A stretch of DNA of 64,000 nucleotides. It comes from an uncultured Chloroflexia bacterium (GTDB lineage Bacteria > Chloroflexota > Anaerolineae > B4-G1 > SLSP01). This document shows, one piece after another, positions 26,187 through 57,304 of this stretch. The DNA lies in NCBI GenBank assembly GCA_963751345.1, contig CAVVUS010000030.1, positions 364,730-428,729 of the forward strand, written 5' to 3'. Position numbers and translations under genes: made by a program. Position 1 is the first letter of the stretch; each line of letters starts with the position of its first letter. The notes below the pieces were generated by a model that saw nothing but the letters and a program-made list of their open reading frames with translations, ran no database searches and was not told where the DNA came from.

Positions 26187-26187
26187 G

Positions 26188-26841: not shown

Positions 26842-26915
26842 GGAAGAAGGAGTAGGGAGTAGGGAGAGGAGTACGGAGTAGGGGGAGCCCTGCGGGCGAG
26901 GGTGGCTCATCTCCA

Positions 26916-26964
26916 AGTGCCGGGGACTCCGCGCCGCAGACGGCGCGGGAAGCTCCCCGGCACT
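26916..26964. repeat. REP-like hairpin, AGTGCCGGGGAC...TCCCCGGCACT family (also 31221, 31308, 49669, 53512, 53596)
   Basis: Same terminal inverted repeat seen at about six intergenic sites. Confidence 0.75.
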
Positions 26965-35650: not shown

Positions 35651-35671
35651 CGCGTGCGTTCCCTCCGGGCT

Positions 35672-35728
35672 TCTTACGTTGATCGCGTTTTGTGACAGAT
35701 TTAGTCACAAATCGCGACTTCCGTAAGA
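35672..35728. promoter_or_regulatory. Long imperfect palindrome upstream of abiEi, candidate autoregulatory operator
   Basis: TCTTACG..TCGCG.TTTGTGAC-N7-GTCACAAA.CGCGA..CGTAAGA. Confidence 0.55.
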
Positions 35729-35896
35729 GAGTATAGCGGAAGACAGGGAGAAGGGAAGGTATCGCGGCGTGACGCTCGGCTTCGAGATTGTCACCCGGCG
35801 TCCGACGATGTCTATGGGTCGCCGGGCGACACATTCCCAAGTCAGGCGTCTGGTTGTGATGGGATGCAGGATGGCGGAGTCAACGGAGAGCAAGAG

Positions 35897-36829: not shown

Positions 36830-37165
36830 TCCGGCCTTCCCGTCCCGGTAGGATATGGTTCCTCCGACTGTACTGCGCTCCCTTGGCTGCGCAAGCACCT
36901 AACCGCAACGACTCGAATTGGAGTTTGGGCCCTATACGCGGCTGGTACAGTGTCCCTCGCCTTGACGCCCCTCGTCCTCTTGCTACAATCATACCTGTGG
37001 CCAACGACCTATACGTGCACAAGCTAAAGATGCAAACAAACCAACGAGGAGGGCCCCTGCCACCTTCGCCATCGCTTTTACGATGGACGATGTTTTCAGG
37101 GCCGTCCGTTGTCGCTCGTCTGTCACCGCCGTAAGGAAACAGGCCTCCTCGGCGAGCGACCTGTA

Positions 37166-37345
37166 TCATCGCAACAACCACGTCTTACCCATCCCTGCCT
37201 GGCCGTGGACGTTGAACAGCAGATACTCATGATCATCCGGCGTGCCCAGGTTCCGCTCAAAGACCTCGAGCTCGGCATCCTGCCCCACGAACAAGTCACG
37301 TTCGCGCTCTTCCCTTACATCACCCCAAGTCCGCTTCGTTGGCAT
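37166..37345 (-). pseudogene. Truncated STAND/AAA_16-like ATPase remnant
   Basis: GGAGG RBS; MPTK...LFVGQDAELEVF...VHGQAGMGKTWLLR then a stop straight after Walker A. Confidence 0.6.
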
Positions 37346-37704
37346 GCCTACCTCCGTGCAAGCGCCTCTTACAGCGCGCTCACTCTCGAAGAGTCAGGAT
37401 TTCCCCATATAGTCTATGATCTCTTCTCCGACTCTGCAACGTCGCCCAACTTATCCTCCCACGTTTCCCCACCCACCGAAAAGGCCTCCACGATGGTGGA
37501 GGCCTTGCTCGCCTACCATGCCGCCACCACTGGCGCCACTCCCGTCACCCTCAACGACAAACTCGATCAGCCCCTCACCCTCACTACCACACCAGGCCCG
37601 CCTGCCGACCATGATCTCCGGCCAACGCCCCACTCACCGCGCCCCACTCCCACTGACCGATCTAGACGCGCTCGGCCTGTAGTCAAATGGTCGACCAACT
37701 GTCC

Positions 37705-38515
37705 TCACCCAAAGGGCGACTCTTGGAGCTTATTGTCCCTTAGTTCTTCCTCAAGGTCATCAAGAAAGCGCACCAGGCCTGCAATGTGGCTCAGAATCAA
37801 CACGCTCTCACGGTAGTTGAGAACAGGATTGGGATGAGCCAGACTCTGGTTGTTTCTAACGCTATTGAATGAATCCAACACGCTGATCGATGACTTCAGT
37901 ATCCGCTCCGTCATTCCCGAATCTACAGCGCATTCATTCGCTAGGGCTTTTACGTATCCCCCGAAGATGCTCTGAAGAGGATGCTTACGGTCATATGCAA
38001 CGCCGTGCTCGTCACACAGTCGTCGGACGTACTTCATCATGTACGTGTGTAGTCTATCCAGTGCCGCTTCCGGCTCGCCTTGTTCAATGCTTCGTCTAAT
38101 CGAGGCTACCAACAGATTGAAGTCTTTATCATCAGGGTCTGACTGCAACGCATCCAGATTCTCGAGCCCCGTGTTGCCCAGTAGCCTATCAACAATCCGA
38201 CTACACTCCTCCTCCAATTCATGCAGCTCTTGCTCATCCGACACCGAGTAATATGAATGCCCCGCAGCCCGCCGATACTTCAACAGATCCCTAAGGAGGC
38301 ATCCCACAGACGGTCTCCTCGGCTTCCCAGAATCCTCTCAGTAGATTGGCCTTTGACCCGCTACCTACCGTGTATTTCGCATCATAGATGTCCACTGCGA
38401 CAGATCCAGCCACAAATCGCTGGAAAGAAGCATTGGAGAAGTTCAGCACATAACCACTCTCCATACCGAACAACTTCTCGAACTTCATCTTCTCCATTAT
38501 GTTGAGGCTAGACAT
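37705..38515 (-). CDS. Abortive infection family protein (Abi_C C-terminal domain), frameshift near 38300
   Basis: FEKLFGMESGYVLNFS...SKANLLRGFW; C-terminal VRNNQSLAHPN (RxxxxxxH). Confidence 0.75.
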
Positions 38516-38913
38516 ACTACCTCCAAGAGCACCCGACATCGCATATCGCCAAGCTTCCACAGATGTGAATCCCGATTCACCATCTTACGCGTTAGCCCTT
38601 GGCTCATCAAGATTATCAATACTGCCGCTCCCATCCTCTCTTCGGACATTGACCTACCGACGATCAGCCCGGCAATGTCCTAGCCAATCTCATCGATTGT
38701 GTGTGGCTGTACTCCGTGCCAATTGTACCGGATGGCTATGCTACCTCCTCGAAAGCCGGCTAAGCGTCCCTACGCTTCACTCGAGAAACAACACCTCGAC
38801 ACATCGGTCCCCTCACTCTCATGCACGGACTCACAATCCCCATCGCTATTCGAGTTCGCCCACCCGATACAGACACTTTTCCCGTAGTCTCCCGGCAAAC
38901 CTGCCTCAGCTCC

Positions 38914-39762
38914 TCATATACTCCCAAACCATGCTCGATCCACTGTCACCTTCTGCGTCTCAATCACCTCGGTCTCCACGCCCAACCCGAGATCCCTCAG
39001 CTTCTCAATCAACAAATCCCCATCAATCAGATCGATGGCTAGCGCACCGTCCCGAACCGCCTCCCGCATCGCATCTCGCGTGAAGTTGCCTGTGGTGATG
39101 AGCAACCCCTTGTCCGCGCGCCCGACCATAGCACCCCGAAAGTCCCGCACTTGCCCTACCGAGACTGAACCCTTGTACCGCTTGCATTGGAAGATCACGT
39201 GGAAACTCAGCAACCCCCCAAGCCTCATAACGCCCTTGCCGTCGATCCCGCCATCGCCGCTCCTGCCGGTGACCTCCACCTGGATAAACCCCGACTCCCT
39301 GAGTAGCCGCTGTACCAGACGCTCAAACGCGGACGGATCCATCTCCAACAGCGTCTCGAGGAGCTCGTCCCGCCAGTTCTCTGCCTCCTCCGACTCCACC
39401 TCATCCGGCTCTGCTTCCCGCTCCTTTCGCCGCTCCTGCATCCAGCGCTTTACCAACCCCGGATTGACCCGCTCTATCTCCCTACCCTTCGGGGTCAGGG
39501 CCCACACGCCTCTAGCGGAGTTGTCCAGCACTCCGTAGTTCTTCAGATAGGTCCTTGTCCATGCCAACCGGTACTCGACCTCGCTCTGACCTCCCCCGGT
39601 TTCAGGCTTATGCAACACCTCGGTCTGCTCGTCGGTGAGATCAGCGATCTCGATCACTCTGTTGCTGATCTCCTCGATCGTCCCGGACCCGCCCAACTCC
39701 TTGAGAGCCCGGATCACGGGATTCATCAACGAATCGTAGCTCGGAATCTCCGCTTCACTCAT
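38914..39762 (-). CDS. mrr: Mrr family (type IV) restriction endonuclease
   Basis: Mrr_N wHTH (RLAWTRTYL...RGVW), FERLV, GDGGIDG, QCKRY, LIDG. Confidence 0.92.
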   Translation of the reverse strand: MSEAEIPSYDSLMNPVIRALKELGGSGTIEEISNRVIEIADLTDEQTEVLHKPETGGGQSEVEYRLAWTRTYLKNYGVLDNSARGVWALTPKGREIERVNPGLVKRWMQERRKEREAEPDEVESEEAENWRDELLETLLEMDPSAFERLVQRLLRESGFIQVEVTGRSGDGGIDGKGVMRLGGLLSFHVIFQCKRYKGSVSVGQVRDFRGAMVGRADKGLLITTGNFTRDAMREAVRDGALAIDLIDGDLLIEKLRDLGLGVETEVIETQKVTVDRAWFGSI

Positions 39763-39998
39763 GCGATCTCCTTAGCCGCTCCGGATCATGCCTACACCGC
39801 CGGGTATCGTGTGCACAGGGGTCACAATATAGTGTAGACCCTATCCCTCGAGCCCGCAATATCCTCTTGCCTGCGACGCCTCATCACGCATCTGATCACC
39901 CATATCTCTAGCCCATCCGTTCTATTCCTCCTTGACAACCCTTCCCTTCCTGGTACCTTACGTGTAGGCGAGCGGTGAGGCGAAGGGAGAGGCCGGCC

Positions 39999-41111
39999 AT
40001 GTCTGATGATGCAGTCAAACTCATAGACCTGTTCTCCGGAGCAGGAGGGCTGACTCTGGGTTTCCAAGAGCATTTCGGAGATCGTCTCGAGGTCGTCTGG
40101 GCTAATGATTTCGATAAAGCCGCCGCTGCCACCTACAACGCCAACTTCGGGCATCGCTGCGACTCCCGCGACATCGTCGACCTACTCGCGGACCCGGACT
40201 TCGAAGTGCCCGAAGCCGATATCGTGGTCGGGGGTCCTCCCTGTCAGGGATTCAGCCTTCTCAACAAGAACCGGGAAGCCGATCCCCGTAAGCAGCTCTG
40301 GAGACCCTACCTGGAGGTCGTCGAGCGTTCCGGTGCGACCACCTTCCTCATTGAGAACGTCCGCCAGCTCATCTCCTCCCCCGAGTACGACGACATCGTG
40401 GATGTGGCCCGGGATCTGGGCTTCGACATCTGGTCGGCGGTGCTCCGCGCTGCCGACTACGGCGTGCCGCAGATGCGCTATCGCGCCTTCATCGTCGGGA
40501 GCAGGGAGACCGACCCCGCAACCCACTTCCCTCCGAAACGCACCCACTACAATCCCGAAGAGCCGATCCCCCTAAGCAACCTCTTCTATGTTGAAGACCC
40601 GCAACCTTACCGAACCGTGCGCGACGCTATCGCCGATCTGCCCGCCCCTGTCGGTACCTCAATTCGCGATGAAGACCCGCCGCTGGATCTGCATTTCGGT
40701 CGCAATCCAACGGAACTCAGCCGGCAGCGTTATCGTGTCGTCTCCGAAGAAGGGATGAATCGATTCGACCTCCAACGTTTGGCGCCGGAACTCACCCCGC
40801 AATGCTGGATAAACAAGAAGAGCGGCGGCACCGATCTCTTTGGGCGCATGTGGTGGGATCGCCCCTCGGTCACTATCCGCACCGAGTTCTACAAACCCGA
40901 GAAGGGCCGCTACCTGCATCCCGAGCAACATCGCCCGATCACCCATCGTGAAGGTGCGCGCCTCCAGTCTATCCCCGATTCGTTCGTCTTCCGCGGAAGC
41001 AAGATCCGGATTGCACGCCAGATCGGGAATGCCGTTCCCCCTCTTCTCGCAAGGCGCCTCGCCGAGAGCATCGACGAGCTCATAAGGATCTCCGTCCCCG
41101 AGCATGCCTGA
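39999..41111 (+). CDS. dcm: DNA (cytosine-5)-methyltransferase
   Basis: DLFSGAGG, GGPPCQGFS, ENV, YGVPQ.RYR, QIGNAVP. Confidence 0.95.
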   Translation: MSDDAVKLIDLFSGAGGLTLGFQEHFGDRLEVVWANDFDKAAAATYNANFGHRCDSRDIVDLLADPDFEVPEADIVVGGPPCQGFSLLNKNREADPRKQLWRPYLEVVERSGATTFLIENVRQLISSPEYDDIVDVARDLGFDIWSAVLRAADYGVPQMRYRAFIVGSRETDPATHFPPKRTHYNPEEPIPLSNLFYVEDPQPYRTVRDAIADLPAPVGTSIRDEDPPLDLHFGRNPTELSRQRYRVVSEEGMNRFDLQRLAPELTPQCWINKKSGGTDLFGRMWWDRPSVTIRTEFYKPEKGRYLHPEQHRPITHREGARLQSIPDSFVFRGSKIRIARQIGNAVPPLLARRLAESIDELIRISVPEHA

Positions 41112-41511
41112 CCGTATTACCCCTCAGCAGCGCAGCCGCAATATGGCTCGTGTGAGGAACAAGAACACCGCTCCCGAGGTCACGGTCAGGAAAATCCTCC
41201 ATCGCTTAGGCTATCGCTTTCGCCTCCACAGGCGCGATCTGCCCGGAACCCCGGATATCGTCTTGTCGCGCCACAAGAAGATCATATTTGTCCACGGCTG
41301 TTTCTGGCACAGTCACGATTGTCCCCGAGGCAAGCGTCCGGCCACACGTACCGAGTTCTGGAATGCCAAGCTTGACGCGAATGTCGCGCGAGACCGCCGT
41401 GATCAGCAACAGCTGGCGGACATGGGGTGGAGCGTGCTCGTCGTTTGGGGATGCTGGCTAAAGGATGTAGAATCCCTGGAGCAGAAGCTCGTCGCCTTCA
41501 TGGAATCCTGA
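41104..41511 (+). CDS. vsr: Very short patch repair endonuclease
   Basis: RSRNMARV, GYRFRL, PGTPDI, FVHGCFWH. Confidence 0.95.
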   Translation: MPDRITPQQRSRNMARVRNKNTAPEVTVRKILHRLGYRFRLHRRDLPGTPDIVLSRHKKIIFVHGCFWHSHDCPRGKRPATRTEFWNAKLDANVARDRRDQQQLADMGWSVLVVWGCWLKDVESLEQKLVAFMES

Positions 41512-41532
41512 CGCCGCAAGGAGTGGTTTCCT

Positions 41533-42507
41533 ATGTCTCAAGTATCCGCATCCGATGCCGGTGCCTACCTCCGCGATCTCCTGACGCTTCTCCGGGAGTT
41601 CGAGAAGACCTCTCCCGATCTGGATCTGCGGGCCAGGGTTAAAGCCCTCATTCCTGCCTACGAAACGCTCAAGAACCTCGGTAAATCACTCATTCCGCAC
41701 GGACTGGCGATGGCCGCCCGAGACCGTATCCTCCACTACTTCCTCGCCTACCCCTGTACCGTCATACCCCGCGAGGAACTTGAGATTGTCGCGGGCATTA
41801 CCGAATGGGCCCGTCGCGTCCGCGAGCTGCGCGTCGAGCACGGTTGGCATATCGTCAGTGGTAAGGCTGCACAGCAGATGCAGTCGGAGGGCGAGTTCAC
41901 GCTTGAGGACGTTGACGTCGGCGCGATGCGACCTGATGACTACATACTCACGAGCACCGTCCAGGACAAGAAAGCCGCCTACCGATGGAACGTAGCCAAC
42001 GACATCCGCAGAAGCGATCTCAGTGTCCGTGATCGGCTGCTGGAATACCTGCGCCGCAACGTAGGAGAGCCGGTATCCGGTGAGGAACTCCGCTACGTCG
42101 CTCGCCAAGCTACCGAGTGGGCTCGCCGCGTCCGTGAACTCAGAACCGAACACGGCTGGCCGATAGCCACTCGGTTCTCAGGCAGGCCCGACCTCTCTGT
42201 CGGCGAATACGTCCTGGAGGAGGACCGCCAAAGCCCCGAGCACGACCGACGCATCAGTGACGACACTCGAGGTCAAGTCCTCAGACGCGATCAATACATC
42301 TGCAGACGGTGCGGTTGGGATCATAGTCAGTGGAATCGCTCGGATCCGCGGCACCTCGAACTCCACCACATTATCCACCACGAAGCCGGCGGCAGCAATG
42401 AAGCTGACAACCTGATCACGCTGTGCACTGTCTGTCACGATACCTGGCACGGCCATGACGCAGATAACCCGCCCCCCGACTTCTACGTGTGGCTGGATAC
42501 CGCCTAG
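41533..42507 (+). CDS. HNH endonuclease with two tandem winged-helix repeats, probable cognate restriction enzyme
   Basis: EWARRVRELR.EHGW twice; CRRC...LELHHI...N..DNLITLCTVCH. Confidence 0.8.
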   Translation: MSQVSASDAGAYLRDLLTLLREFEKTSPDLDLRARVKALIPAYETLKNLGKSLIPHGLAMAARDRILHYFLAYPCTVIPREELEIVAGITEWARRVRELRVEHGWHIVSGKAAQQMQSEGEFTLEDVDVGAMRPDDYILTSTVQDKKAAYRWNVANDIRRSDLSVRDRLLEYLRRNVGEPVSGEELRYVARQATEWARRVRELRTEHGWPIATRFSGRPDLSVGEYVLEEDRQSPEHDRRISDDTRGQVLRRDQYICRRCGWDHSQWNRSDPRHLELHHIIHHEAGGSNEADNLITLCTVCHDTWHGHDADNPPPDFYVWLDTA

Positions 42508-42581
42508 CTTCGCATCTGAGCCCGGTGGCCCAGCTGCAATCTCAATCGGTCGTCGGTGAGAAGCACCTGCACAGCAGGCAC

Positions 42582-44384
42582 TCACCGCACCACCAACGGC
42601 AGGTAGACGTGCTCGTTGAGGACCAGCGGGAACCCGCACGACGCGCCATCGCAGCTCAGGCTAAGATTGTACGCGCCGATCTTGTCGGCGCCGTGGGTGC
42701 CGGCCAGCAGCGTGTAGGTGCCGCTGAAGGGCAGGGTGCACCCAGCGAACTCTGCCTTGCCGCTCATATAGCTGCTGCTGGACCCATATGCCTCACACAG
42801 TTTGACGCCGTCCGTCCCGTAGAGCCGGATGTGCGGATCGATCACGTTGACGGCACAGGTCATTCGAGCCGTCACCACGTCGCCTGAAGCTGCCCGGAAC
42901 GTGTAGGCATCCCATTCGCCTGCCGGGCTGATCGTCGCCTGGATGGGCACTCCGAACTGCAGCGGCACTCCGCTCGGCGCAGGATCGACCCGTTGGAGAT
43001 GCAGATCATAGGTGCCATAGGTCATACGAGAGGAACTGGGATAGGTGCCGACGAACGCCACGTAGGTCTGGTCGGACGGTAGGATGCAGTGGACGTAAGG
43101 CGCGTCGGTAAGGTACTGCGTATAGGCATAGTCCTGACAGATCAACGTCCCGGTCCCACTGTAGACACGCAGCTCCGGATCAAAGCTGTGATCCGGCACC
43201 CCCACCTGGCCAACGAGGACCTCGCCTGTCTTGCCTTCGAACGTGTAGGCGTCAAGCTGGGCCGCGTGACTCGTCGCCTTCACTTTGGTCTCGCCATAGG
43301 CCAAGGGAGACGCGCCAACGGGATTCGTCGGCCGCACCAGGTAGAGGTCGTAGTTCCCCACGTCGCTCCCACCATAGTCGCTGACTAATAGCGTCTGCGT
43401 GCCTTGCGTCACCAACGTACAGCCCGGAATGTCCGCGATAATATCGTAGCTGTAGTCGGTGCAGATCTGTGTGCCGTTAGGGCCATAGACGCGGAGTTGA
43501 GGATCTAGTCCACCGGCTGAGGTGGGGGCAGCGCGAATCACCAGCACGTCTCCCGCGTTGCCGGTGAACGTGTAGGCATCCAACTCGGCTGCAGCTGCCA
43601 CCGTCTCCGATCGTGTCTGAGCGTCGGGCAACGCATCTCCGCCCAGGGGGTTGTTCAGCCGCTGCACGTGCAGGTTGTAGACGCCCACGTGGGTGCCGAG
43701 GTTATCGCCTACCAACAGCGTGTGAGGGCCATCTGTCAACAGGGTGCAGGTGTCGATGAAGACCGGGGAGTACGTGCTGCTGTTCTGGCAGAGAAGCGTG
43801 CCCGTGGGGTCGTAGACACGGATCTTGGGAGAGACCGTCCCGCTGGTCGTGGTTGCCTGGACAACCAGGTGATCGCCGGTGTTCCCGCCAATAGTCAAGG
43901 TGTTCAGCAACGCGGCTGAGGTCAGGGAGCCCGACTGCGTGCGGCCATACGCAAACGACGTGGTATTGCCGGGCGCGTTCAGCCGCTGGATGTAGAGGCC
44001 GTAGGTCCCCGTGTTGACCAGGTTGTGGTCCGTCGCTCGCACGGAGTATGCGCCGGTCGAGGGCATCGTGCACGCGGCGATCTCGGCCGTGTTATAGTAA
44101 TCGTAATCGGCACAGAGCTCTATCCCGCCTTCGTCCACGATGCCCACGTGGGGCTTCAGTGTGCCGGAGATCTTGCTCATGCGCACGAGGATGATGTCGC
44201 CGGCATCGGCAGCAAAGGTGTAACTATCTTCCTCTGCGACGGTGCCGATGGCATCCCGGATGACGGCGCCAAAGGTCAGGTCGGATGCTGAGGAAGCTCG
44301 TGCCCGGGCTCGCAGCGTGATGAGCATGCCTAGGAGGATAACGAATACGATACCAAGACGGCGAACACGAAGGCGAACTGACAC
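42582..44384 (-). CDS. Secreted protein with five PPC-like beta-sandwich repeats and a Chloroflexi C-terminal LPLV motif
   Basis: Signal peptide; repeated D.YTF...GD...DP.LRVY...C...C.L...G.Y; ends HVYLPLVVR. Confidence 0.8.
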   Translation of the reverse strand: MSVRLRVRRLGIVFVILLGMLITLRARARASSASDLTFGAVIRDAIGTVAEEDSYTFAADAGDIILVRMSKISGTLKPHVGIVDEGGIELCADYDYYNTAEIAACTMPSTGAYSVRATDHNLVNTGTYGLYIQRLNAPGNTTSFAYGRTQSGSLTSAALLNTLTIGGNTGDHLVVQATTTSGTVSPKIRVYDPTGTLLCQNSSTYSPVFIDTCTLLTDGPHTLLVGDNLGTHVGVYNLHVQRLNNPLGGDALPDAQTRSETVAAAAELDAYTFTGNAGDVLVIRAAPTSAGGLDPQLRVYGPNGTQICTDYSYDIIADIPGCTLVTQGTQTLLVSDYGGSDVGNYDLYLVRPTNPVGASPLAYGETKVKATSHAAQLDAYTFEGKTGEVLVGQVGVPDHSFDPELRVYSGTGTLICQDYAYTQYLTDAPYVHCILPSDQTYVAFVGTYPSSSRMTYGTYDLHLQRVDPAPSGVPLQFGVPIQATISPAGEWDAYTFRAASGDVVTARMTCAVNVIDPHIRLYGTDGVKLCEAYGSSSSYMSGKAEFAGCTLPFSGTYTLLAGTHGADKIGAYNLSLSCDGASCGFPLVLNEHVYLPLVVR

Positions 44385-44832
44385 GGGAACGGTCTCCTGA
44401 TCAGATGATAGGTGCCCAGGGGCTTTAAGGTATTCCCCGCCCTCAGAAGAGGCACGGGCCTCACGCTAACCTAGTTTAGACCGAGTCTCGGAACGTGCAA
44501 AAGCCAGAAACACAAACCCGGAGAACCGGTCGCAATCGTGCCGAACGTCTGCCACGGTACATCTTGGCATGGGGTCAGGTCAACCGAATACGCCGTGCTG
44601 TGACAGACTGTCATGGCGCTCGCACTGAGCCGGAATGGCTGCGAGCGCCTCAGACGGGGCGCCTCAGACGGCGAAGACGCAGGATATTTCCCTTTCGGCG
44701 TAGTAGCTCCGGAAATGCCGGGCCGGCCCAGACGAAGATCGGGCCACATCCGGAGGCGGGGAGGTGAGGCGCACCAACGCCAGGTGCATCCCACCGGGCC
44801 ACGTGCGCTGGCTAGGACAGGTTGGTTCGCGC

Positions 44833-44861
44833 CAGCGGCCCAGGAGTAGTTCATGTCGGCC
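44833..44861 (-). repeat. Short copy of the nifJ 3' end
   Basis: 27/29 nt identical to 49806-49834; encodes ADMNYSWAA versus ADMDYTWAA. Confidence 0.75.
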
Positions 44862-44994
44862 GTTTGGCGGCGACTCGACGACGGGGAACTGTAGCAGCAG
44901 AGTCAGGCAGGCGCGAACTCGCGGACATGGAGAATCTCGGTGCGGCCGATGGGACGGACGTCGTCGGGGAAAGCGCCTGTTGTGCTGCGCCCGA

Positions 44995-45330
44995 CTATGC
45001 CTGCCGCGGGCTTGCTTCTGACTTCGTATAGATCACGGTCGCGGTGCTGAGCACCTCGCGGCGGAGCAGCCAGTTGCGGCTTTGCTCGACGCCGCGGCGG
45101 GTGACGAGGTCGACGTCGCGGTGGAGGAGTGTGCGGAGCTCCTGCTCCATGGTGACGTGGTCGAGGAGGCTCCAGGCCGCGTCGTCCTCGAAGGTGGCAA
45201 GCAGGTCGATGTCGCTCTCGGCGTCGAAGTCGGGACGCAGCACGGAGCCGAAGACCGCGTGCTGACGCAAGCGTCAGCATCGGCAGAAGCCGGCGATCTC
45301 GACCATCGGGAGCGTCTCCACCGGGCTCAT
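44995..45330 (-). pseudogene. MNT (minimal nucleotidyltransferase) antitoxin with an in-frame TGA at codon 19
   Basis: VFGSVLRPDFDAESDIDLL, DVDLVTR; no HEPN partner seen. Confidence 0.75.
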
Positions 45331-45504
45331 CCTCGTGTGCCTCGCGTGCCAAATGGGTCTGCGTTCGTTCTATACCACCGTCGTCAGTGTACTATGGATT
45401 GGCGAATCGCCCCAAGCGGAGTGACCGGGGGGCCCATGTCAACGTGGTTGCTATGGTCTGCATCGTACGCACTGTGGCTTCGGACGGAGCGTCCAGCAGA
45501 CTGG

Positions 45505-45572
45505 GCGGTGCGCCTCAGACGGCGGTGCGCCTCAGACGGCGGTGCGCCTCAGACGGCGGTGCGCCTCGGACG
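45505..45572 (+). repeat. Tandem repeat, 4 x 17 bp GCGGTGCGCCTCAGACG
   Basis: Direct reading; two related units near 44645. Confidence 0.85.
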
Positions 45573-45839
45573 GCGACCCGACAACCGGCGCCGTAGCGGC
45601 AGGGTCAGGCGGGCGCGAGCTCGCGGACGTGGGCTGCCTCCTGCCATCGCAGCCCAGGAAGCCTCAGGCATCGCGCCACACATAGAAAGAATGGGGAAGA
45701 ATGGAGAATGGGAGAGGAGAAGCACGGGCCGGGGAGGCATCGACAAGTGGTCATCATACTTTCTCCTTGGCTCCGGCTTCATCGGTCTTACAATGAAGCG
45801 CAGTAGAGACACCAGCGATCTGACTGGGGAGGCGGACTA

Positions 45840-46090
45840 TCTGAGCGCACGCTGTCCAGCCTGTTGACGCAGTTGCGCGCGCTCCTGCCCGGGCTGCAAG
45901 CACGCTATGGGGTGCAGTCGCTGGGGGTCTTTGGGTCGTATGTCCGCGGCGACCAGGGCCCCGGCAGCGATCTCGATCTCCTGGTCGCGTTCGACGATCG
46001 CCCTTTGTCCCTGTTCGAGTTTCGTGCGGCTGGAGAACGAGTTGTCCGATGCGCTCGGCGTCAAGGTGGACCTCGTGGAGCGGCGCGCCC
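45840..46090 (+). pseudogene. Decayed duplicate of the MNT gene at 47542
   Basis: Near-identical DNA but the start codon is lost, a frameshift occurs near 46020 and the 3' end is truncated. Confidence 0.75.
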
Positions 46091-46324
46091 GGGGACACGT
46101 CGATCCCGAGGCAACGTCGTTTGACACGTGGCTGGATGCCGTCCACGAGGATCTGGAAGTGCCGGCGGATGAGGTCGAACTGGGGCCGGCTATGGTGCAG
46201 GGGCGGCTGCTGTAAGGTAGAGGCGATTGTAACCCGCACCTTGCCAGTGTCGGCTATAATCGGTTTATCGTTCAGCGCGTTGTAACGCGGCAAACGCATG
46301 TCATATGGAAAGGTAGCAAGCGCT

Positions 46325-46558
46325 ATGAGTATCCTACTCGACCGAATCGAGATCGACCCGGAGATCTGCCATGGAAAGCCCGTCATCCGTGGCTTACGCT
46401 ATCCCGTTGAGAGTATCCTGGAACTGATGAGCGCGGGGATGACGATCGACGAGATCCTCGCTGACTACGAGGATCTTGACCGCGAGGACCTGCTGGCTGT
46501 CTTGGCTTTCGCCGCGCGGTTAAGTCAGGTCAAGCGTATGGAACCCGTCGTCGCGTGA
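46325..46558 (+). CDS. DUF433 family antitoxin
   Basis: RIEIDPEICHGKPVIRGLR...EILADY..L..ED. Confidence 0.9.
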   Translation: MSILLDRIEIDPEICHGKPVIRGLRYPVESILELMSAGMTIDEILADYEDLDREDLLAVLAFAARLSQVKRMEPVVA

Positions 46559-46878
46559 GTTTCCTGATCGACGCTCAACTACCGCGCCGGCTGGCACACC
46601 GTTTGCGTGACGCCGGTCACGACACACTGCATACGCTCGATCTGCCCAAAGGGAACCGTTCCACCGATGCCGAGATATGCGAGATCTCCGCACGCGACCA
46701 GCGCATTGTCATCACGAAGGATGCCGATTTCGTCAACTCGTTCCTCCTGGGTCGCGGACCGTACAAGCTTCTGCTGATCTCAGTGGGCAATATCAGAAAC
46801 GCAGATCTTGAGACGCTCTTCGTGCCACAGATCCCGGCGATCGCCGCCGCCTTTGTTCACATGACTTCGTTGAGCTGA
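46555..46878 (+). CDS. DUF5615 PIN-like toxin (C-terminus may extend to 46908 through a frameshift)
   Basis: FLIDAQLP, TD.EI, VITKDADF, GNIRN. Confidence 0.85.
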   Translation: MSFLIDAQLPRRLAHRLRDAGHDTLHTLDLPKGNRSTDAEICEISARDQRIVITKDADFVNSFLLGRGPYKLLLISVGNIRNADLETLFVPQIPAIAAAFVHMTSLS

Positions 46879-46973
46879 CCCGTACCGCACTTGTCATCCA
46901 CGTGTAGGTGGCAATACGCGGTCCATGCAGTATGAGCTGGGCGGCGGAGTCCGCCGGCGATATCTAGTGTTCA

Positions 46974-47159
46974 ATGCCACGCCTAACCGACCACAGCTTC
47001 TGTCTCTCGTATGGCCCCGGCGACGATCGCCTGCAGGCCTTCTACATCCCTGCACTGGCCAGCAGTGTACGCTACGCCCGGTTGACGGGAATTTTCATCT
47101 TTACAATCGCATCGAGGAGTACATCAGCCAGTAAGAGCTTGACTGCGATACAGTGCTGA
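46974..47159 (+). pseudogene. N-terminal remnant resembling PLD-domain/SF2 helicase proteins
   Basis: SYGPGDDRLQAFYIPAL..SVRYARLTG resembles the FYxPxL...YDRxxGYF start of such helicases. Confidence 0.45.
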
Positions 47160-47187
47160 TGGCTCGAGGCGTCGCTGCCTTGGCACA

Positions 47188-47407
47188 GCAGCGCGCCCGC
47201 CGAAGGGTCTCGGCGGGCGCGCATGGTTCGTGTGCGAAGGTTTGTCTGCGAACGCTTAGTCCGCGGCAGCGGCCCAGCTGTAGTCCATGTCGTATATCTG
47301 CTTGTACTGGTTCCAACGGGCCTTGGCGTCCGCGCGCACGGGGTTCAGCAGGACCGCAGCCCGCTCGGGCTGGGACTGCAGGAGCGTGCGGAAGCGGATC
47401 TCGTTGT
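47188..47407 (-). repeat. Duplicate of the nifJ 3' end plus its downstream hairpin
   Basis: 47244-47407 matches 49783-49946 with 8 mismatches in 164 nt by manual alignment; CGCGCCCGCCG hairpin also shared. Confidence 0.92.
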
Positions 47408-47541
47408 TATGGAGAAGAGAAGAATGGAGAATAGGAGAGGCGGTACGAACAGGCGACCATCCTACCGCCTCCTTGTCTCCGGCTTCATCGGTCCCACAAT
47501 GAGGAGCAGTCGAGGCACCAGTGCCTCACTGAGGAGGGGAT

Positions 47542-47844
47542 ATGTCTGAGAGCACGCTGTCCAGCCTGTTGACGCAGTTGCGCGCGCTCCTGCCCGGGCT
47601 TGAAGCACGCTATGGGGTTCAGTCGCTGGGGGTCTTTGGTTCTTACGTCCGCGGGGACCAAAGCCCCGGCAGCGATCTCGATCTCCTGGTCGCGTTCGAC
47701 GATCGCCCTCTGTCGCTGTTCGATTTCGTGCAGCTGGAGAACGAGTTGTCCGATGCACTCGGCATCAAGGTGGACCTCGTGGAGCGGCGCGCCCTCAAGC
47801 CTCATATCCGCCAGCGAATCCTGGATGAGGTGATTGCGGTATGA
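47542..47844 (+). CDS. MNT family nucleotidyltransferase antitoxin
   Basis: GVFGSYVRGDQ...SDLDLLV, KVDLV. Confidence 0.9.
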   Translation: MSESTLSSLLTQLRALLPGLEARYGVQSLGVFGSYVRGDQSPGSDLDLLVAFDDRPLSLFDFVQLENELSDALGIKVDLVERRALKPHIRQRILDEVIAV

Positions 47845-47978
47845 CGTCTCAGCCCACGTGCACCTGCATCGACTACCTGCGCGACATCCTCGATGCGGCA
47901 GAAAGCGCACAGAAGTTCGTGTGTGGATGTGAATTGCTGGACAACAGGCTGTCGGTCAACACCGTCTCAGCGGAATAG
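47841..47978 (+). pseudogene. Truncated HEPN/DUF86 toxin
   Basis: ATGA overlap with MNT; DYLRDILDAAESAQKFV N-terminus only, no RxxxxH. Confidence 0.6.
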
Positions 47979-48245
47979 ATCCGCATGTGAACCTGTACGT
48001 TCGAAGATGACAACTTCGTCATCCTCTCCTTCGAGCTTATAGATCAAGAGCCAGTCGGGCTCCAGATGACAATCTCGCCGGCCCACATAGAGGCCAAACA
48101 ATGGATGGTCCCGATACGCTGGATCCAAGGATTCACCCTCAATCAGGGCGTCCATCACGGTCCACAGCTTGTCTATGTCCTTGTGACGCCTCTTCATCAG
48201 CTTGATGTCGCGTTTGAATTGGGTGGTGGTTACCGGCTCGCGCAT
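47967..48245 (-). CDS. yafQ: YafQ/RelE family mRNA interferase toxin
   Basis: QFKRD, DHPL.G, RDCHLEPDWLLIY, RTGSHADLF. Confidence 0.92.
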   Translation of the reverse strand: MREPVTTTQFKRDIKLMKRRHKDIDKLWTVMDALIEGESLDPAYRDHPLFGLYVGRRDCHLEPDWLLIYKLEGEDDEVVIFERTGSHADLFR

Positions 48246-48262
48246 CGCCTACCTTTTCTGAC

Positions 48263-48526
48263 TTATCGACCCAGATCCCGGTACATCTCCTCGACAGTCT
48301 CGTAGTGGTGCAGATTGCGTCCGGCATCCGTATCCTTGAACGTCTGCTCCGTAACCTCGTTCGGGATCTTGACCTCGAAGGGCAGTCCCTTATGCAGAAG
48401 TACCTGCTTGTAGAACAGCGTCACGGCCGTGGTTGTCGATAGGCCCAGCTCGTCGAAGATTTCATCCACCTCTTTCTTGAGCTCAGGCTCTAGCCGTGCC
48501 CTTAGCATCGCATCCTTAGCCATCAT
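48263..48526 (-). CDS. dinJ: RelB/DinJ family antitoxin
   Basis: RARLEPELK...LGLSTTTAV.LF...GLPF...PN. Confidence 0.88.
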   Translation of the reverse strand: MMAKDAMLRARLEPELKKEVDEIFDELGLSTTTAVTLFYKQVLLHKGLPFEVKIPNEVTEQTFKDTDAGRNLHHYETVEEMYRDLGR

Positions 48527-48785
48527 CTACCTCCCCACACACCTCAGTGTGTTTGTGTGCCTGTCCGCACACTGCCACCGCCAAGCTGTCGTGCTAACAC
48601 TCATATTGTACACCGTTTGGGACACAATGCAAGGATACGTAAGGGTGGCGAATCGCCCCGGGGGTAGTGACTGGCCGACGCACGTCAACCCGGTTGCCAT
48701 GATACTCATTCGGGAGTTGCCCGTATACTACATGGCAAGTGGATCTTCCGAGCATGATCTCGCCATCTTTCGAGGAGCTTATTTC

Positions 48786-49658
48786 ATGAAAGCAGATAAC
48801 ACCAAGCGTGAGTTGGGATTTTCGAGCCGCCGTGCGGCCGTGTGGCTGTGGCTGTCGATTGGCGCCGCGCTGTTGGCGGTGGCGGGCAGCGTTATCGCGT
48901 TGTCGGTCAAGGGGATCTACGCCGGGTTGACGCCGGCCTTTTTGCCGCAGGCGCTGGCCCAGGACATCGCGAATCTGGCGATCGTCGCGCCGCTGTGGCT
49001 GGTGCTCGCGGTGCTGGCGCTGCGCGGTTCGTTGCGGGCGTATCTCCTGTGGTTGGGTGTGCTGACGTTCACGATCTACAACTATGTGATCTATACGTTT
49101 TCGATCCCTTTCGGACCGCTGTTTCTACTGTGGGTTGCGGTCTTCGGGATGTCGATCTATTCGCTGATCGGCGGGGTCACGGCGGTGAATCACAAGGTTG
49201 TGGCGGCGTCTTTCTCAAGCCGGCGTGCGGTTCAGGTTGTGGCCTGGTTTCTGATCATCACGGCGGTGCTCTTCGGTTTTCTCTGGCTGTCCGAGGATGT
49301 GCCGGCGCTCTTATCGGGCACGAGACCTCAGAGTGTCGTGGATATGAGCCTGCCGACAAATCCCGTGCATATCTTGGACCTGGGGTTCTTTTTGCCGGCG
49401 GTGATCGCCACCGGCGTGATGCTCATCAGGGGAAGGGCGCTGGGGTACACGCTGGCCCCCGCTTTTATCGTCTTCCTGATCTTGACGGGGATCCCGATCT
49501 TGATCACGCCCGTGGTGCAATCGGTACGCGGCGAGGCTGCGGCGTGGGGCGTGGTGGGGCCGATCGGGACGCTGACGGTGGTGCTGTTGGGGTTGTTGGT
49601 TTGGGTGGTGGGGACGATACGGCCCAGGGGGAAGGCGGCTGACAAAAGGCGGGGGTGA
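48786..49658 (+). CDS. Hypothetical multi-pass membrane protein
   Basis: GAGGAG RBS; about 8 TM helices, AQD, NPVHILDLGF. Confidence 0.75.
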   Translation: MKADNTKRELGFSSRRAAVWLWLSIGAALLAVAGSVIALSVKGIYAGLTPAFLPQALAQDIANLAIVAPLWLVLAVLALRGSLRAYLLWLGVLTFTIYNYVIYTFSIPFGPLFLLWVAVFGMSIYSLIGGVTAVNHKVVAASFSSRRAVQVVAWFLIITAVLFGFLWLSEDVPALLSGTRPQSVVDMSLPTNPVHILDLGFFLPAVIATGVMLIRGRALGYTLAPAFIVFLILTGIPILITPVVQSVRGEAAAWGVVGPIGTLTVVLLGLLVWVVGTIRPRGKAADKRRG

Positions 49659-49727
49659 TCGCCCACCAAGTGCCGGGGACCTCGCGCCGATCGGAATCGG
49701 CGCCAAGGCTCCCCGGCACTGTAGATA

Positions 49728-49763
49728 GCAACGCGCCCGCCGGGATCCCGGCGGGCGCGTTTG
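49728..49763 (-). terminator. GC-rich hairpin downstream of nifJ
   Basis: AACGCGCCCGCCGGG-AT-CCCGGCGGGCGCGTT. Confidence 0.6.
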
Positions 49764-49794
49764 TGTTCTGTAGGAAACGTTCGTCTGCGAACGC

Positions 49795-52700
49795 CTAGTC
49801 CGCGGCAGCGGCCCAGGTGTAGTCCATGTCGGCCATCTGCTTGTACTGGTTCCAACGGGCCTTGGCGTCCGCGCGCGCGAGGTTCAGCAGGACCTCAGCC
49901 CGCTCGGGCTGGGACTGCAGGAGCGTGCGGAAGCGGATCTCGTTGTACATGTAGTCCTTGACGTCCGCCTTGGGCTCGCGGGAGTCCAACTGGAGCGGGT
50001 TCTTGCCCTGGGCGATCAGGCGCGGGTCGTAGCGGTAGAGCATCCACGCACCGGAGTCGACCGCCAGTTTCTGCTGGGAGAATCCCTGCTTCATCTGCGG
50101 GATGCCCCAGGAGATGCAGTGGCTGTAGGCGATGACGAGGCTCGGGCCGTCGTAGGACTCGGCCTCAGAGATCGCGCGCAGTGCCTGCGCATCGTTGGCA
50201 CCCATCGCGATCTGCGCGACGAAGATGTTGCCGTAGGTCATGGCGATCATGCCCAGGTCCTTCTTGGGCAAGCCACGACCGGCGTAGGCGAACTTCGCGA
50301 CGGCACCCCGCGGGGTCGCCTTGGACATCTGGCCGCCGGTGTTGGAGTAGACCTGCGTGTCCAACACGAGGACGTTGACGTTGCGACCCTGGGCCAGGAC
50401 GTGGTCGAGGCCACCATAGCCGATGTCGTAGGCCCAACCGTCTCCACCGAAGATCCAGACGGAGCGGCGCACGAGCACGTCGGAGAGGCTCAGGAGGTCC
50501 TTGGCCTTGGGGCTGTTGTCTCCTTCGAGGCGGGTGCGCAGCAGGGCAACGCGTTCGCGCTGTGCGGCGTAGTCGGCCTCGGTGAGCTGCTCGGCACTCA
50601 GGATCGCGTCGACCAGGTCTTCACCCACGGTGCCGGCAAACCCCTGCAGCAGTTCGCGGGCATATTCTTCCTGCTTGTCCAGCGTCAGGCGGAAGCCATA
50701 GCCGAACTCGGCGTTGTCCTCGAAGAGGCTGTTGTTCCAGGCAGGGCCCTGACCCGCGGCGTTGGTGGTGTAGGGGGTGGTGGGCAGGTAGCCGCCGTAG
50801 ATGGACGAGCACCCGGTGGCGTTGGCGATCACGGCGCGATCGCCGAAGAGCTGGCTGACCAGGCGGACGTAGGGCGTCTCGCCGCAGCCCGCGCACGCGC
50901 CGGAGAACTCGAAGAGCGGACGGAGGAGCTGTGAGCCCTTGACCGTCTTGAGGTTGAGCTCGGTGCGGTCGTAGTCAGGGATTTGGTTGAAGAAGAAGTC
51001 CCAGTAGCCGCTCTCCCGCTCGCGAATGTCGAAGACGGGGGTCATGTTGATGGCCTTGCGGCCGGGGTCATCGCGATCCTTGGCCGGGCAGACCTCAACA
51101 CAGAGCCCACATCCCGTGCAGTCCTCGATGCTTTCCTGGACGGTGAACATCTTGCCGGAGAACTCGCGACCGCGGGCCTCCGCAGAGCGGAATCCCGCCG
51201 GCGCATCGGCGAGCAGGCCGGCATCGTAGGCCTTGATGCGAATCACGGCGTGGGGGCAGGCCATCGCGCACTTGCCGCACTGGATGCAGATATCGGGATC
51301 CCAGATGGGGGTCTCGAGGGCAATGAAGCGCTTCTCATACTGGGTTGTGCCCACGGGGAAGGTACCGTCCGCCGGGATGGCGGAGACGGGCAGGCTGTCG
51401 CCCTCACGCTGGATCATCTTCGCCGTCACGTTGGCGACGAAGTCGGGCACGTCACCCTTGACCGGCGGCTGCATAGCGCGGTCCCCGGTGGGCTCGGCGG
51501 GCACGTCAATCTTGTGCATGTTTTCGAGCGACTGATCGACGGCGGCGAAGTTCATGTCGACGACCCTCTGACCGCGCTTGCCGTAGGACTTCTTGATGGC
51601 GTCCTTGATCTTGGCGATGGCCTCATCCTTGGGCAGGACGCCGGAGAGCGCGAAGAAGCAGGTCTGCATGATGGTGTTGATGCGGCCACCCAGGCCGACC
51701 TCGCCGGCGACGTTGTAGGCGTCGATGACGTAGAAGTCGAGACCCTTGTCGATGATCCGCTGCTGCGCCATCCGCGGGAGGTGATCCCAGGTCTCGCTTG
51801 CGGGGTAGGGGCTGTTCAGAAGGAACGTGCCGCCCTTGACCGCGCTGCTGAGGATGTCGTACTGCTCGATGAGCGAGAACTGGTGGCAACCGATGAAGCT
51901 GGCCGCGCTCACGAGACAGGTCTGGCGGATCGGGCGCGGGCCGAAGCGCAGGTGAGAGACCGTGATGCCGCCGGACTTCTTGGCGTCATACTCGAAGTAG
52001 CCCTGGGCGTAGAGGTCGGTCTCGTCGCCGATGATCTTGATGCTGTTCTTGTTGGCGCCCACCGTGCCGTCGGAGCCGAGGCCGTAGAAGAGGCCGCGGA
52101 CCACGTCGTCGCCCTCGATGTCGAACGCGGGGTCGTAGTCGAGGCTGGTGTTGGTCACGTCGTCGACGATGCCGATGGTGAAGTGGTTCTTGGGAGTCGC
52201 CTTCTTCATCTCATCGAAGACGCCCTTGGCCATTGCCGGGGTGAATTCCTTGCTGGAGAGACCGTAGCGCCCACCGATCACGCTGAGCGCGCGGCCGCCC
52301 TCGGCCAGTGCCGTGATGCAGTCCTGGTAGAGGGGCTCGCCGGCGCTGCCGGGCTCCTTGGTGCGATCCAAAACGGCCAGGATCTTGACGGTGTCGGGAA
52401 GCACGGCGAGAAAGTGCTCGACGCTGAAGGGGCGGAAGAGGTGCACCTTGAGCACGCCCACCTTCTCACCCTGACCGACGAGGTATTCGACCGTCTCCTC
52501 GGTAACCTCGGCGCCGGAGCCCATCAACACGATCACGCGCTCCGCATCGGGTGCGCCGACGTAGTCAAAGAGCTTGTACTGCCGACCGGTCAGCGATGCG
52601 AATTGATCCATCGCCGCCTGGACGATGCCGGGGGTCGCGACATAGTAGGGATTGACGGTCTCGCGGCCCTGGAAGTAGACATCGGGGCCCTGCGAGGTCC

Positions 52701-53352
52701 CGCGCACGACAGGGCGGTTGGGGTTCAGGCCGCGGGCTCGATGGGCCTGAACCAGGTCGTCATTGATCATTGCCCGGAGGACATCGTCCGAGAGCGGGTC
52801 GATCTTGTTGACCTCAGAGCTGGTCCGGAATCCGTCAAAGAAATGGACGAAGGGAACCCGCGACTCAAGTGTCGCGGCCTGCGCAATCAAGGTGAAGTCC
52901 TGAGCTTCCTGTACGGAGTTGCTCGCGAGCAGCGCGAAGCCCGTCGCGCGCGTCGCCGTGATATCGGTATGATCCCCGAAGATCGAGAGGGCCTGCGCGG
53001 ACAGACTGCGTGCGGAGACGTGGAAGACCGTTGAGGTCAGCTCGCCCGCGATCTTGTACATGCTGGGGATCATCAGCAGGAGGCCCTGGGACGCCGTGAA
53101 GGTGGTCGTCAACGCCCCCGTCTGGAGAGCCCCATGAACTGCACCTGCCGCACCACCTTCAGCCTGCATCTCGGCAACCAAGGGGATGGAGCCCCAAATG
53201 TTGGTCACGCCCTTGGCCGAGAGCTCATCTGCCAGCTCACCCATAGAGCTGGAAGGGGTAATCGGGTAAATGGCAATGACCTCATTGATCTTGTGCGCCA
53301 CGGTGGCGCACGCGGTATTGCCATCTACCGTAATCATCTTGCGTTCTGCCAT
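49795..53352 (-). CDS. nifJ: Pyruvate:ferredoxin (flavodoxin) oxidoreductase
   Basis: YPITPS, GLGSDGTVGANK, two CxxCxxCxxxCP clusters, FSGACAGCGE, GGDGWAYDIG. Confidence 0.97.
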   Translation of the reverse strand: MAERKMITVDGNTACATVAHKINEVIAIYPITPSSSMGELADELSAKGVTNIWGSIPLVAEMQAEGGAAGAVHGALQTGALTTTFTASQGLLLMIPSMYKIAGELTSTVFHVSARSLSAQALSIFGDHTDITATRATGFALLASNSVQEAQDFTLIAQAATLESRVPFVHFFDGFRTSSEVNKIDPLSDDVLRAMINDDLVQAHRARGLNPNRPVVRGTSQGPDVYFQGRETVNPYYVATPGIVQAAMDQFASLTGRQYKLFDYVGAPDAERVIVLMGSGAEVTEETVEYLVGQGEKVGVLKVHLFRPFSVEHFLAVLPDTVKILAVLDRTKEPGSAGEPLYQDCITALAEGGRALSVIGGRYGLSSKEFTPAMAKGVFDEMKKATPKNHFTIGIVDDVTNTSLDYDPAFDIEGDDVVRGLFYGLGSDGTVGANKNSIKIIGDETDLYAQGYFEYDAKKSGGITVSHLRFGPRPIRQTCLVSAASFIGCHQFSLIEQYDILSSAVKGGTFLLNSPYPASETWDHLPRMAQQRIIDKGLDFYVIDAYNVAGEVGLGGRINTIMQTCFFALSGVLPKDEAIAKIKDAIKKSYGKRGQRVVDMNFAAVDQSLENMHKIDVPAEPTGDRAMQPPVKGDVPDFVANVTAKMIQREGDSLPVSAIPADGTFPVGTTQYEKRFIALETPIWDPDICIQCGKCAMACPHAVIRIKAYDAGLLADAPAGFRSAEARGREFSGKMFTVQESIEDCTGCGLCVEVCPAKDRDDPGRKAINMTPVFDIRERESGYWDFFFNQIPDYDRTELNLKTVKGSQLLRPLFEFSGACAGCGETPYVRLVSQLFGDRAVIANATGCSSIYGGYLPTTPYTTNAAGQGPAWNNSLFEDNAEFGYGFRLTLDKQEEYARELLQGFAGTVGEDLVDAILSAEQLTEADYAAQRERVALLRTRLEGDNSPKAKDLLSLSDVLVRRSVWIFGGDGWAYDIGYGGLDHVLAQGRNVNVLVLDTQVYSNTGGQMSKATPRGAVAKFAYAGRGLPKKDLGMIAMTYGNIFVAQIAMGANDAQALRAISEAESYDGPSLVIAYSHCISWGIPQMKQGFSQQKLAVDSGAWMLYRYDPRLIAQGKNPLQLDSREPKADVKDYMYNEIRFRTLLQSQPERAEVLLNLARADAKARWNQYKQMADMDYTWAAAAD

Positions 53353-57116: not shown

Positions 57117-57304
57117 AGGGGCGCCTCGATGATGGAAATATCGAAATATATCAATATGTACATTATACGTGGGAAGTGGAAAAAGGGGAAGGGGAGAGAA
57201 GAAAGAATGGAGAATAGAGAATGAAGAAGGGAGTAAGAGGGAGTAGGAAGTAAGAACCGGAGATGGGGGCGCATACAAACGTGCAGGAGGCGAGCGCGAG
57301 GGAT

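Follow-up and report, generated by a model that had tools for sequence, protein, structure and literature searches.

The DNA considered here is a stretch of 64,000 nucleotides from an uncultured Chloroflexia bacterium (contig CAVVUS010000030.1), called the window below, and the feature at issue is the 3' end of its nifJ gene, which encodes pyruvate:ferredoxin/flavodoxin oxidoreductase. The gene (49795..53352, minus strand) is an intact open reading frame (ORF) of 1185 amino acids with the Pfam domains POR_N, POR, EKR, PFOR_II, Fer4 and TPP_enzyme_C, and orthologues are found in 23 relatives. Between nifJ and a convergent HAD hydrolase gene lies a 22.9 kb island of toxin-antitoxin and defence genes. 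At its nifJ-proximal end the island contains two displaced copies of the nifJ 3' end, termed B and C. Together with the working end, copy A, they form an intact gene end and two same-orientation direct repeats of it, which bound inserted blocks. The source genome of the window, G000, is a metagenome-assembled genome (MAG; 93% complete, 5.6% estimated contamination), as is its closest relative, G002 (96% complete).

Read outward from nifJ, the island begins with the genes for a membrane protein, the RelB antitoxin and the YafQ toxin, followed by a minimal nucleotidyltransferase (MNT) module, c, and by copy B. Next come a 69-residue ORF, the genes for a PIN-like DUF5615 protein and a DUF433 protein, a relic MNT module, b, a tandem repeat of 17 nucleotides, MNT gene a and copy C. 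Beyond copy C are the genes of a PPC-domain protein, an HNH nuclease, Vsr, Dcm, Mrr, an Abi_C protein, an HNH_2 nuclease and AbiEi with AbiEii. Further left are genes without a family match, a UPF0175/DUF3368 pair and a c-di-AMP riboswitch, and then the HAD gene (26149-26841, plus strand, identified with Pfam). The latter and the REP-like hairpin that follows it make up the conserved far flank of the island (26149..26966).

Copy A (49727..49946, minus strand; repeat search and blastn) serves as the reference copy of the repeat and comprises the last 152 nucleotides of the working gene plus a terminator hairpin (49730-49761) with a folding energy of -33.4 kcal/mol and a z-score of -6.95; none of 200 shuffled sequences folds as well. 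Copy B (47187..47407, minus strand; repeat search, blastn and profile search) is a displaced gene end of 152 nucleotides, which reads ...KQIYDMDYSWAAAD*, together with a terminator hairpin of its own. The repeat search aligns 47237-47407 with 49776-49946 at 94% identity and without gaps. When the hairpin is included, blastn matches 47187-47407 to 49727-49946 with 90.1% identity over 223 columns (E 1e-67), and the profile search detects copy B at E 4.4e-36. The copy near 47.2 kb and its downstream hairpin, both reported in a preliminary description of this DNA, are thus genuine. The hairpin (-34.5 kcal/mol) is as strong as that behind the working gene, and again no shuffle out of 200 folds as well.

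Across the last 152 coding nucleotides copy B is 94-95% identical to copy A. Taken as a whole, the two copies differ by 17 mismatches and four gap openings, a pseudogene-like pattern. Its nearest sequence is the nifJ end of G000 itself (94.7%), the next is that of G002 (91.4%), and the 17 other relatives reach at most 76.5%. Copy B keeps the serine codon AGC present in most relatives; the working ends of both G000 and G002 have the threonine codon ACC instead. Six changes are private to copy B and most of them are non-synonymous. By its sequence, copy B looks as a displaced, unselected former gene end should look, although the sites are few and gene conversion could distort the picture.

Copy C (44825..44866, minus strand) is a second displaced nifJ end, probably the older one, detected by blastn, nhmmer and six-frame hmmsearch. 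It reads ADMNYSWAAGAN, has lost the stop codon and carries no hairpin; folding reveals no stable structure downstream of it. Over 44825-44866, 36 of the 42 nucleotides match, and the 29-nucleotide core (44833-44861) has the 27 matches counted earlier. The blastn E-value is 5e-7 for a search of the window and 1.8e-6 when all 5.4 Mb of the genome are searched, that of the six-frame hmmsearch is 0.004, and nhmmer assigns 9.7 bits, where the best of 20 shuffled windows scores 8.2. Moreover, G002, an independent assembly, has copy C at the orthologous position. The upstream boundaries of the two displaced copies differ: homology begins 152 nucleotides before the nifJ end in copy B and about 45 nucleotides before it in copy C. 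The 42 nucleotides common to the copies differ at six positions, and copy C may be truncated. A, B and C all have the same orientation and are spaced by 2539 and 2434 nucleotides, decay being greater further from nifJ.

The preliminary description listed four copies of the gene end downstream of nifJ. B (47187-47407) and C (44825-44866) are real, and the other two are not. The third (42523..42551, minus strand) had been credited with about 20 of 29 core matches. The count is 19, and of about 128,000 positions six reach 19 or more matches, copies A, B and C themselves accounting for three. This site does not appear in blastn at E <= 100, and nhmmer gives it 1.8 bits (E 7.3), a score reached one to six times in every one of the 20 shuffles. 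It is a chance match, and the third core spacing, which depended on it, is lost with it, while those of 2539 and 2434 nucleotides stand. Shuffled controls therefore uphold copy C and discard this site. The fourth, described as gapped and weak (37662..37701, minus strand), has four of 29 ungapped matches (14 at the best nearby offset) and is recovered neither by blastn nor by nhmmer (both at E <= 100) nor by the protein profile; it is not supported.

Could copy B have been created by the assembler, as a chimera of two strain variants within the MAG? The estimated contamination of 5.6% gives some room for this. In four soil or sediment metagenome runs, which contain 5-29% of the sampled words, contigs are short and of low depth; none of them covers 46961-47551, nor does any bridge the repeats. 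However, repeats produced by assembly are normally identical, whereas B differs from A by the mismatches and gaps given above. The junction at 47407/47408 holds no shared sequence that might mislead an assembler, and the sister scar, copy C, recurs in an independent assembly. We regard an artefact as highly improbable.

The history of the site can be read from what lies downstream of nifJ at 18 related loci. Thirteen of them have the convergent HAD gene 87-158 nucleotides beyond nifJ, which is the empty site. The HAD gene is followed there by genes for DUF1015, a 2-hydroxyacid dehydrogenase, an aminotransferase and DUF2085, as it is to the left of 26.8 kb in the window. Of the remaining five loci, one has an MFS transporter gene in an insert of 2 kb, one differs in synteny, two are short or different, and one is the island of G002. 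The nifJ of G002 is 91% identical, and G002 alone has a related island. Since the site is empty in 13 of the 18 loci and a related island exists only in G002, the 22.9 kb insert is specific to the G000/G002 lineage. A comparison of cargo among relatives, which the preliminary description had proposed, thus does separate them: most have an empty site and the content of G002 differs. No duplicate of the nifJ end is present in the 18 loci scanned (17 relatives); the G002 locus (L031) shows none because the copy C of that genome lies on another contig.

In G002 the island is divided between the ends of two contigs. Collinearity with the window extends from the core as far as 33.8 kb (86-95% identity); 33.8-37.1 kb, with AbiE and HNH_2, is absent, and different DNA occupies the place of 37.3-39.9 kb. 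Between 39889 and 45020 the window is 97.6% identical to G002 contig C17, against 86-89% in the flanking core; this tract comprises Dcm, Vsr, HNH, the PPC-domain protein, copy C and a portion of an MNT gene. The difference shows that homologous exchange between lineages has acted recently at this locus, and it suggests that the 5.1 kb tract is a recent transfer of the restriction-modification block by homologous recombination. It also qualifies the earlier claim that similarity falls with distance from nifJ: copy C is indeed more decayed than copy B, but a tract of this kind at 39.9-45.0 kb speaks against a simple age gradient. Closer to nifJ, most of MNT module b and the PIN gene have been lost from G002, which differs in addition at 45.6-46.1 kb. 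Where the window has 46960-47427 (468 nucleotides, copy B included), G002 has no less than 13.8 kb, which extends across the contig gap and contains fragments of a type I restriction gene, a DUF3037 gene and extra MNT modules. After this the two genomes again agree in having MNT module c, the gene of the membrane protein and the end of nifJ, without YafQ/RelB in G002. A patch of high identity at 49600-50300 may mark a homologous anchor. All the differences observed between G000 and G002 are internal indels or replacements, and none is an addition at nifJ. The two insertions at nifJ are most likely older than the split, given that the blocks on either side of copy B have the same order in both genomes and that both possess copy C.

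The two blocks bounded by the gene ends have the same layout, namely a gene end, cargo and an MNT module that is 89% identical between them. The cargo between the copies is unrelated, as had been stated. The first, nifJ-proximal block has in addition a bidirectional hairpin beside its gene end. The left border of the MNT module is formed by the same AG-rich tract in three contexts. In the first block this tract lies 20 nucleotides from the border of copy B, and the MNT module abuts that copy at a distance of 41 nucleotides; in the second the MNT module is about 830 nucleotides from copy C.

A single old tandem duplication of a unit of roughly 1.7 kb (nifJ end, cargo and MNT), with one cargo replaced later and copy C left by an earlier similar event, would also yield repeated gene ends and repeated modules. 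The divergence between A and B (5-10%) is close to that between the MNT modules b and c (11%), and the units are of similar length once the YafQ/RelB indel is set aside (about 1655 and 1708 nucleotides). Against this, the cargo regions 48785-49726 and 46216-47186 have no similarity to each other, the offsets of the repeats are unequal (2539 and 1705 nucleotides), and two insertions are a more parsimonious account than a complete replacement whose sharp borders fall exactly at the terminator and at the MNT module. Given the shared layout and the 89% identity of the MNT modules, two insertions of related blocks fit better than one duplication followed by complete cargo replacement, which we consider unlikely.

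The preliminary description had found no integrase in the window, and a Pfam search agrees, detecting neither a tyrosine nor a serine recombinase there. In G000 as a whole there are three matches to PF00589, all outside the window, and none to PF00239 (serine recombinase); in G002 there are three matches to PF00589, none of them near the island. The tyrosine recombinase genes thus number three in each genome and are all remote from the island; a cognate recombinase elsewhere that carries the same core, as had been envisaged, is not found in the assembled part of either genome. The stretch 47150-47950 matches nothing in plasmid and phage collections. A degenerate core pattern of 23 nucleotides occurs neither in metagenome contigs nor in viral contigs (zero matches in each), and a conserved stretch of 24 nucleotides likewise gives zero matches in metagenome contigs.

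Serial insertion at a gene end is nevertheless a process with precedents. Pavlovic et al. in 2004 reportedly provided an example of accretion at the 3' end of a protein-coding gene, with the ICESt1/ICESt3 family at fda in Streptococcus thermophilus. The stacking of elements at a gene end with displaced end copies, tandem accretion and cis-mobilizable elements (CIMEs) are established (PMC5704250), as is the decay of resident elements into integrase-less remnants flanked by att sites (PMC5704250, PMC3146451). In Dehalococcoides, also a member of the Chloroflexota, multiple tandem ssrA islands with a 20 bp direct repeat are described, 16 with a serine-recombinase module and 15 without (PMC3146451).

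The nifJ locus resembles tandem accretion and CIMEs, as portrayed there (PMC5704250), in its intact target end, in the same-orientation direct repeats that bound the blocks and in the lack of integration genes in the resident blocks. In accretion a newcomer inserts at the site, gene end included, so that older blocks come to lie further away. Here, in contrast, no cognate integrase is found in either of two genomes. The repeats are 220 nucleotides long and lineage-identical rather than a short core, and they start at different positions of the gene; the blocks measure only about 2.4-2.5 kb. The ssrA islands, in the account drawn on here (PMC3146451), are likewise stacked downstream of one gene and bounded by repeats of its 3' end; the 15 without an integration module are discussed as possible CIMEs, and past the last repeat there is a variable region that is fixed and free of repeats. 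In the same account their target is tmRNA, with a uniform 20 bp repeat, a defined insertion point and 16 serine-recombinase modules, whereas the target here is a protein-coding gene with two repeats of unequal boundaries and no recombinase module. Structurally, then, the case is the known footprint of tandem accretion, with its repeats, empty site and integrase-less blocks; the recombinase that accretion requires is not found, and the core does not appear to be uniform.

It might accordingly be supposed that small non-autonomous, cis-mobilizable elements accumulated here newest-first, in two rungs, by site-specific recombination at an att core in the nifJ 3' end, with an integrase that either has since disappeared or works in trans. 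Accretion arrays described elsewhere leave the same footprint, with an intact gene end, direct repeats and decayed elements devoid of integrase (PMC5704250, PMC3146451), and a conserved MNT module beside the repeat in both blocks is what related elements would be expected to show. But neither genome has a recombinase close to the island, nor does the window contain one; the upstream boundaries of B and C are unequal, and no plasmid, phage or viral collection yields a match. Furthermore, the displaced gene end is near-identical to that of the host lineage over 152 nucleotides and the hairpin, unlike a diverged mimic carried by an element, and no event at nifJ has followed the split. Site-specific accretion thus seems a rather weak candidate.

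The explanation that we find moderately probable is that two successive single-anchor (Campbell-type) insertions took place at the nifJ end, a route independent of a recombinase being as likely as an integrase or somewhat more so. We infer the following order of events and mechanism. In this Chloroflexota lineage the short spacer between nifJ and HAD has become the 22.9 kb island, and each incoming block would have carried its own nifJ 3' end and ended in an MNT module, the second also bringing the bidirectional terminator. Each insertion would have rebuilt nifJ and pushed the earlier end downstream, to decay as a pseudo-end. C would have been displaced first and B second, both most likely before the split from G002. 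The crossover may have been RecA-mediated, with a circle that carried the gene end, or may have been a homology-facilitated illegitimate recombination anchored in nifJ. Since the incoming end was near-identical to that of the host lineage over 152 nucleotides and the hairpin, the source of the DNA would have been the chromosome of closely related strains. The rest of the island was probably built, and is probably still being remodelled, by internal indels and homologous exchange rather than by additions at nifJ.

The recombinase-independent route is rated somewhat above site-specific accretion because there is no integrase near the island, B and C have unequal starts, the gene end is lineage-like, plasmid, phage and viral collections contain no match, and the tract with 97.6% identity to G002 attests recent homologous exchange at this locus. 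This preference for two recombinase-independent insertions is held loosely, both genomes being incomplete MAGs, and it must be noted that several points weigh against it. Circular or empty forms are without read support, the contigs found being of low depth and uninformative. Copy B comes from one assembly, G002 having at least 13.8 kb in its place. The displacement of B is dated relative to the split by one site (ACC versus AGC), which gene conversion between A and B could blur. A recombinase could lie in the unassembled part of either MAG (93% and 96% complete) or have come from a transient element. Finally, the near-equal lengths of the blocks are compatible with an old tandem duplication.

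The stronger proposal, that nifJ is a polarised attachment site where cassettes pile up newest-first like an integron or a CRISPR-style chronological record, survives in part. What remains is a lineage-specific insertion site with at least two gene-restoring insertions. The distal 18 kb of the island (26.9-44.8 kb) contains no gene-end remnant, so this part was not built by displacement of the gene end. Combined with post-split changes that, as far as observed, are all internal, this repeat-free distal region speaks against an ongoing polarised chronological array. Only two rungs exist, and serial integration is already established. Ordered addition at one end is the sole idea in common with integrons and CRISPR arrays. 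There is no intI, attI or attC, no leader and no repeat-spacer unit at this locus, and the borders of the blocks consist of gene-end copies and MNT modules, without attC-like repeats.

Defence islands and hotspots are lineage-specific mosaics of restriction, abortive-infection and toxin-antitoxin cargo between conserved housekeeping genes. The locus fits this concept: its defence-rich variable cargo (AbiE, Mrr, Dcm/Vsr/HNH, HNH_2, MNT, YafQ/RelB, DUF433/PIN) lies between conserved flanks, is mosaic relative to G002, differs between the closest genomes and bears signs of homologous exchange. Unlike in the usual hotspot, gene-end scars here record the route of insertion for part of the island. 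It is conceivable, albeit doubtful, that gene-end copies, bidirectional terminator and conserved MNT module act as portable homology arms by which integrase-less blocks are captured and swapped by host recombination. If so, they would represent a general recombinase-free route by which defence islands are seeded at the 3' ends of housekeeping genes. Should integrase-less displaced gene ends prove to arise by ordinary homologous or homology-facilitated recombination, something modest but general would be learnt about how islands form. Taken singly the locus is ordinary, and it is no chronological recording array. It does offer a clean, dated example of a defence and toxin-antitoxin island seeded without damage at the end of an essential-pathway gene, for which the unoccupied site, a sister genome and scars of two ages are at hand. 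The target is nifJ in an uncultured soil Chloroflexota lineage, without any integrase at hand; we have met no report in the literature of nifJ as an integration target, although no dedicated search for it was made.

The cargo annotation given earlier agrees with Pfam, PADLOC and NCBIfam. Next to nifJ and convergent with it is the gene of a polytopic membrane protein (48786..49658, plus strand) with seven or eight hydrophobic segments; its start codon is uncertain, the reading frame being open from 48429. The protein has no match in Pfam, NCBIfam or PADLOC and is 82% identical to its G002 orthologue over 294 amino acids. It was considered as a hidden recombinase and rejected, in view of its hydrophobic segments and the lack of a family match. 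ARAGORN places a 95-nucleotide tRNA-His inside this gene (48958-49052, plus strand), which is unconfirmed by Rfam and probably a false positive. The YafQ toxin (47967-48245; Pfam YafQ_toxin, 1.8e-30) and RelB antitoxin (48263-48526; Pfam RelB, 8.8e-14) genes follow on the minus strand (47967..48526) within a block, 47922-48784, that is missing from G002 as an indel.

MNT module c (47428..47921, plus strand) consists of an AG-rich heptad tract, the nucleotidyltransferase gene (47542-47844; Pfam NTP_transf_2, 3.4e-17), which is MntA-like and classed as PDC-S09 by PADLOC, and a downstream ORF stub of 42 codons. The stub (47841-47966) has no Pfam match at E <= 10 that would indicate a HEPN partner. 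The module is 89% identical to 45752-46090 and 91% identical to the G002 copy, which has the same left boundary. In a scan of genome contigs with the MNT protein, G002 is the sole close relative; the other 79 loci are at most 67% identical and belong to unrelated phyla. Module b (45699..46215, plus strand) is a relic paralogue of c, 89% identical to 47458-47794 over 339 nucleotides. When the two are aligned, an indel falls within the coding part, and on the left both are bounded by the same AG tract. MNT gene a (44995..45270, minus strand; Pfam Polbeta and NTP_transf_2, about 4e-10) is of a different type, to which three modules in G002 are related. The remaining cargo of the second block (46298..47134, plus strand) comprises DUF433 (46298-46558; 2e-25), the PIN-like DUF5615 (46555-46878; 5.2e-22), both from Pfam, and the 69-residue ORF (46925-47134), which has no family match.

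The AG-rich heptad tract at the MNT borders was examined as a cassette signal and discarded, similar GGAGAAT-type tracts being found genome-wide. Intergenic purine-rich heptad runs of the GGAGAAT or GGAGTAG type occur at 45699-45725, 47408-47440, 57171-57260 and 26842-26886 and on many other contigs. The 10-mer GAATGGAGAA has 21 occurrences in the genome, about 10 being expected, and many of these are in heptad runs. The tandem repeat between MNT modules a and b, found by the repeat search at 45487..45588, has about five units of 17 nucleotides (GGCGGTGCGCCTCAGAC). Contigs of the four metagenome runs pile up over it, showing small insertions and loose ends, which makes it probable that this unit is either common in those communities or variable there.

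Beyond copy C, Pfam and PADLOC identify the Dcm methylase (39975-41111), Vsr (41104-41511), the HNH nuclease (41533-42507) and the PPC-domain protein (42582-44384, minus strand), which together occupy 39975..44384. Further out, on the minus strand (33930..39762; Pfam, PADLOC and NCBIfam), are AbiEii with AbiEi (33930-35650), the HNH_2 nuclease (35897-36898), the Abi_C protein (37705-38307) and the Mrr type IV nuclease (38914-39762). Rfam at its gathering threshold yields only the riboswitch and a tRNA. The c-di-AMP riboswitch (RF00379, 86 bits; 30654-30800, plus strand) lies inside the island, upstream of ORFs without a family at 31.0-33.8 kb, which indicates that the DNA inserted between HAD and nifJ also included a regulated operon, probably one without a role in defence.

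The REP-like hairpin, an element of about 50 nucleotides (GTGCCGGGGA...TCCCCGGCAC), happens to occupy both borders of the island (26913-26966 and 49666..49722). It was evaluated as the true att site and rejected because it is a dispersed genome repeat, with related copies at 26913-26966 and 31217-31269 and on contigs C1, C8, C18, C24 and C33, its family being spread over at least six contigs. Upstream of nifJ, a glycolate-oxidase-like gene (54288-56736, minus strand) is apparently split into two ORFs, with FAD_binding_4 at 56242-56736 and FAD-oxidase_C, Fer4 and CCG at 54288-56216. Either a frameshift or a true pair of genes could account for this. At locus L048 (G005:C36), from a different species of the same genus, tandem repeats of about 85-91 nucleotides run from the nifJ terminator to the end of the contig, at about 280-867 nucleotides.

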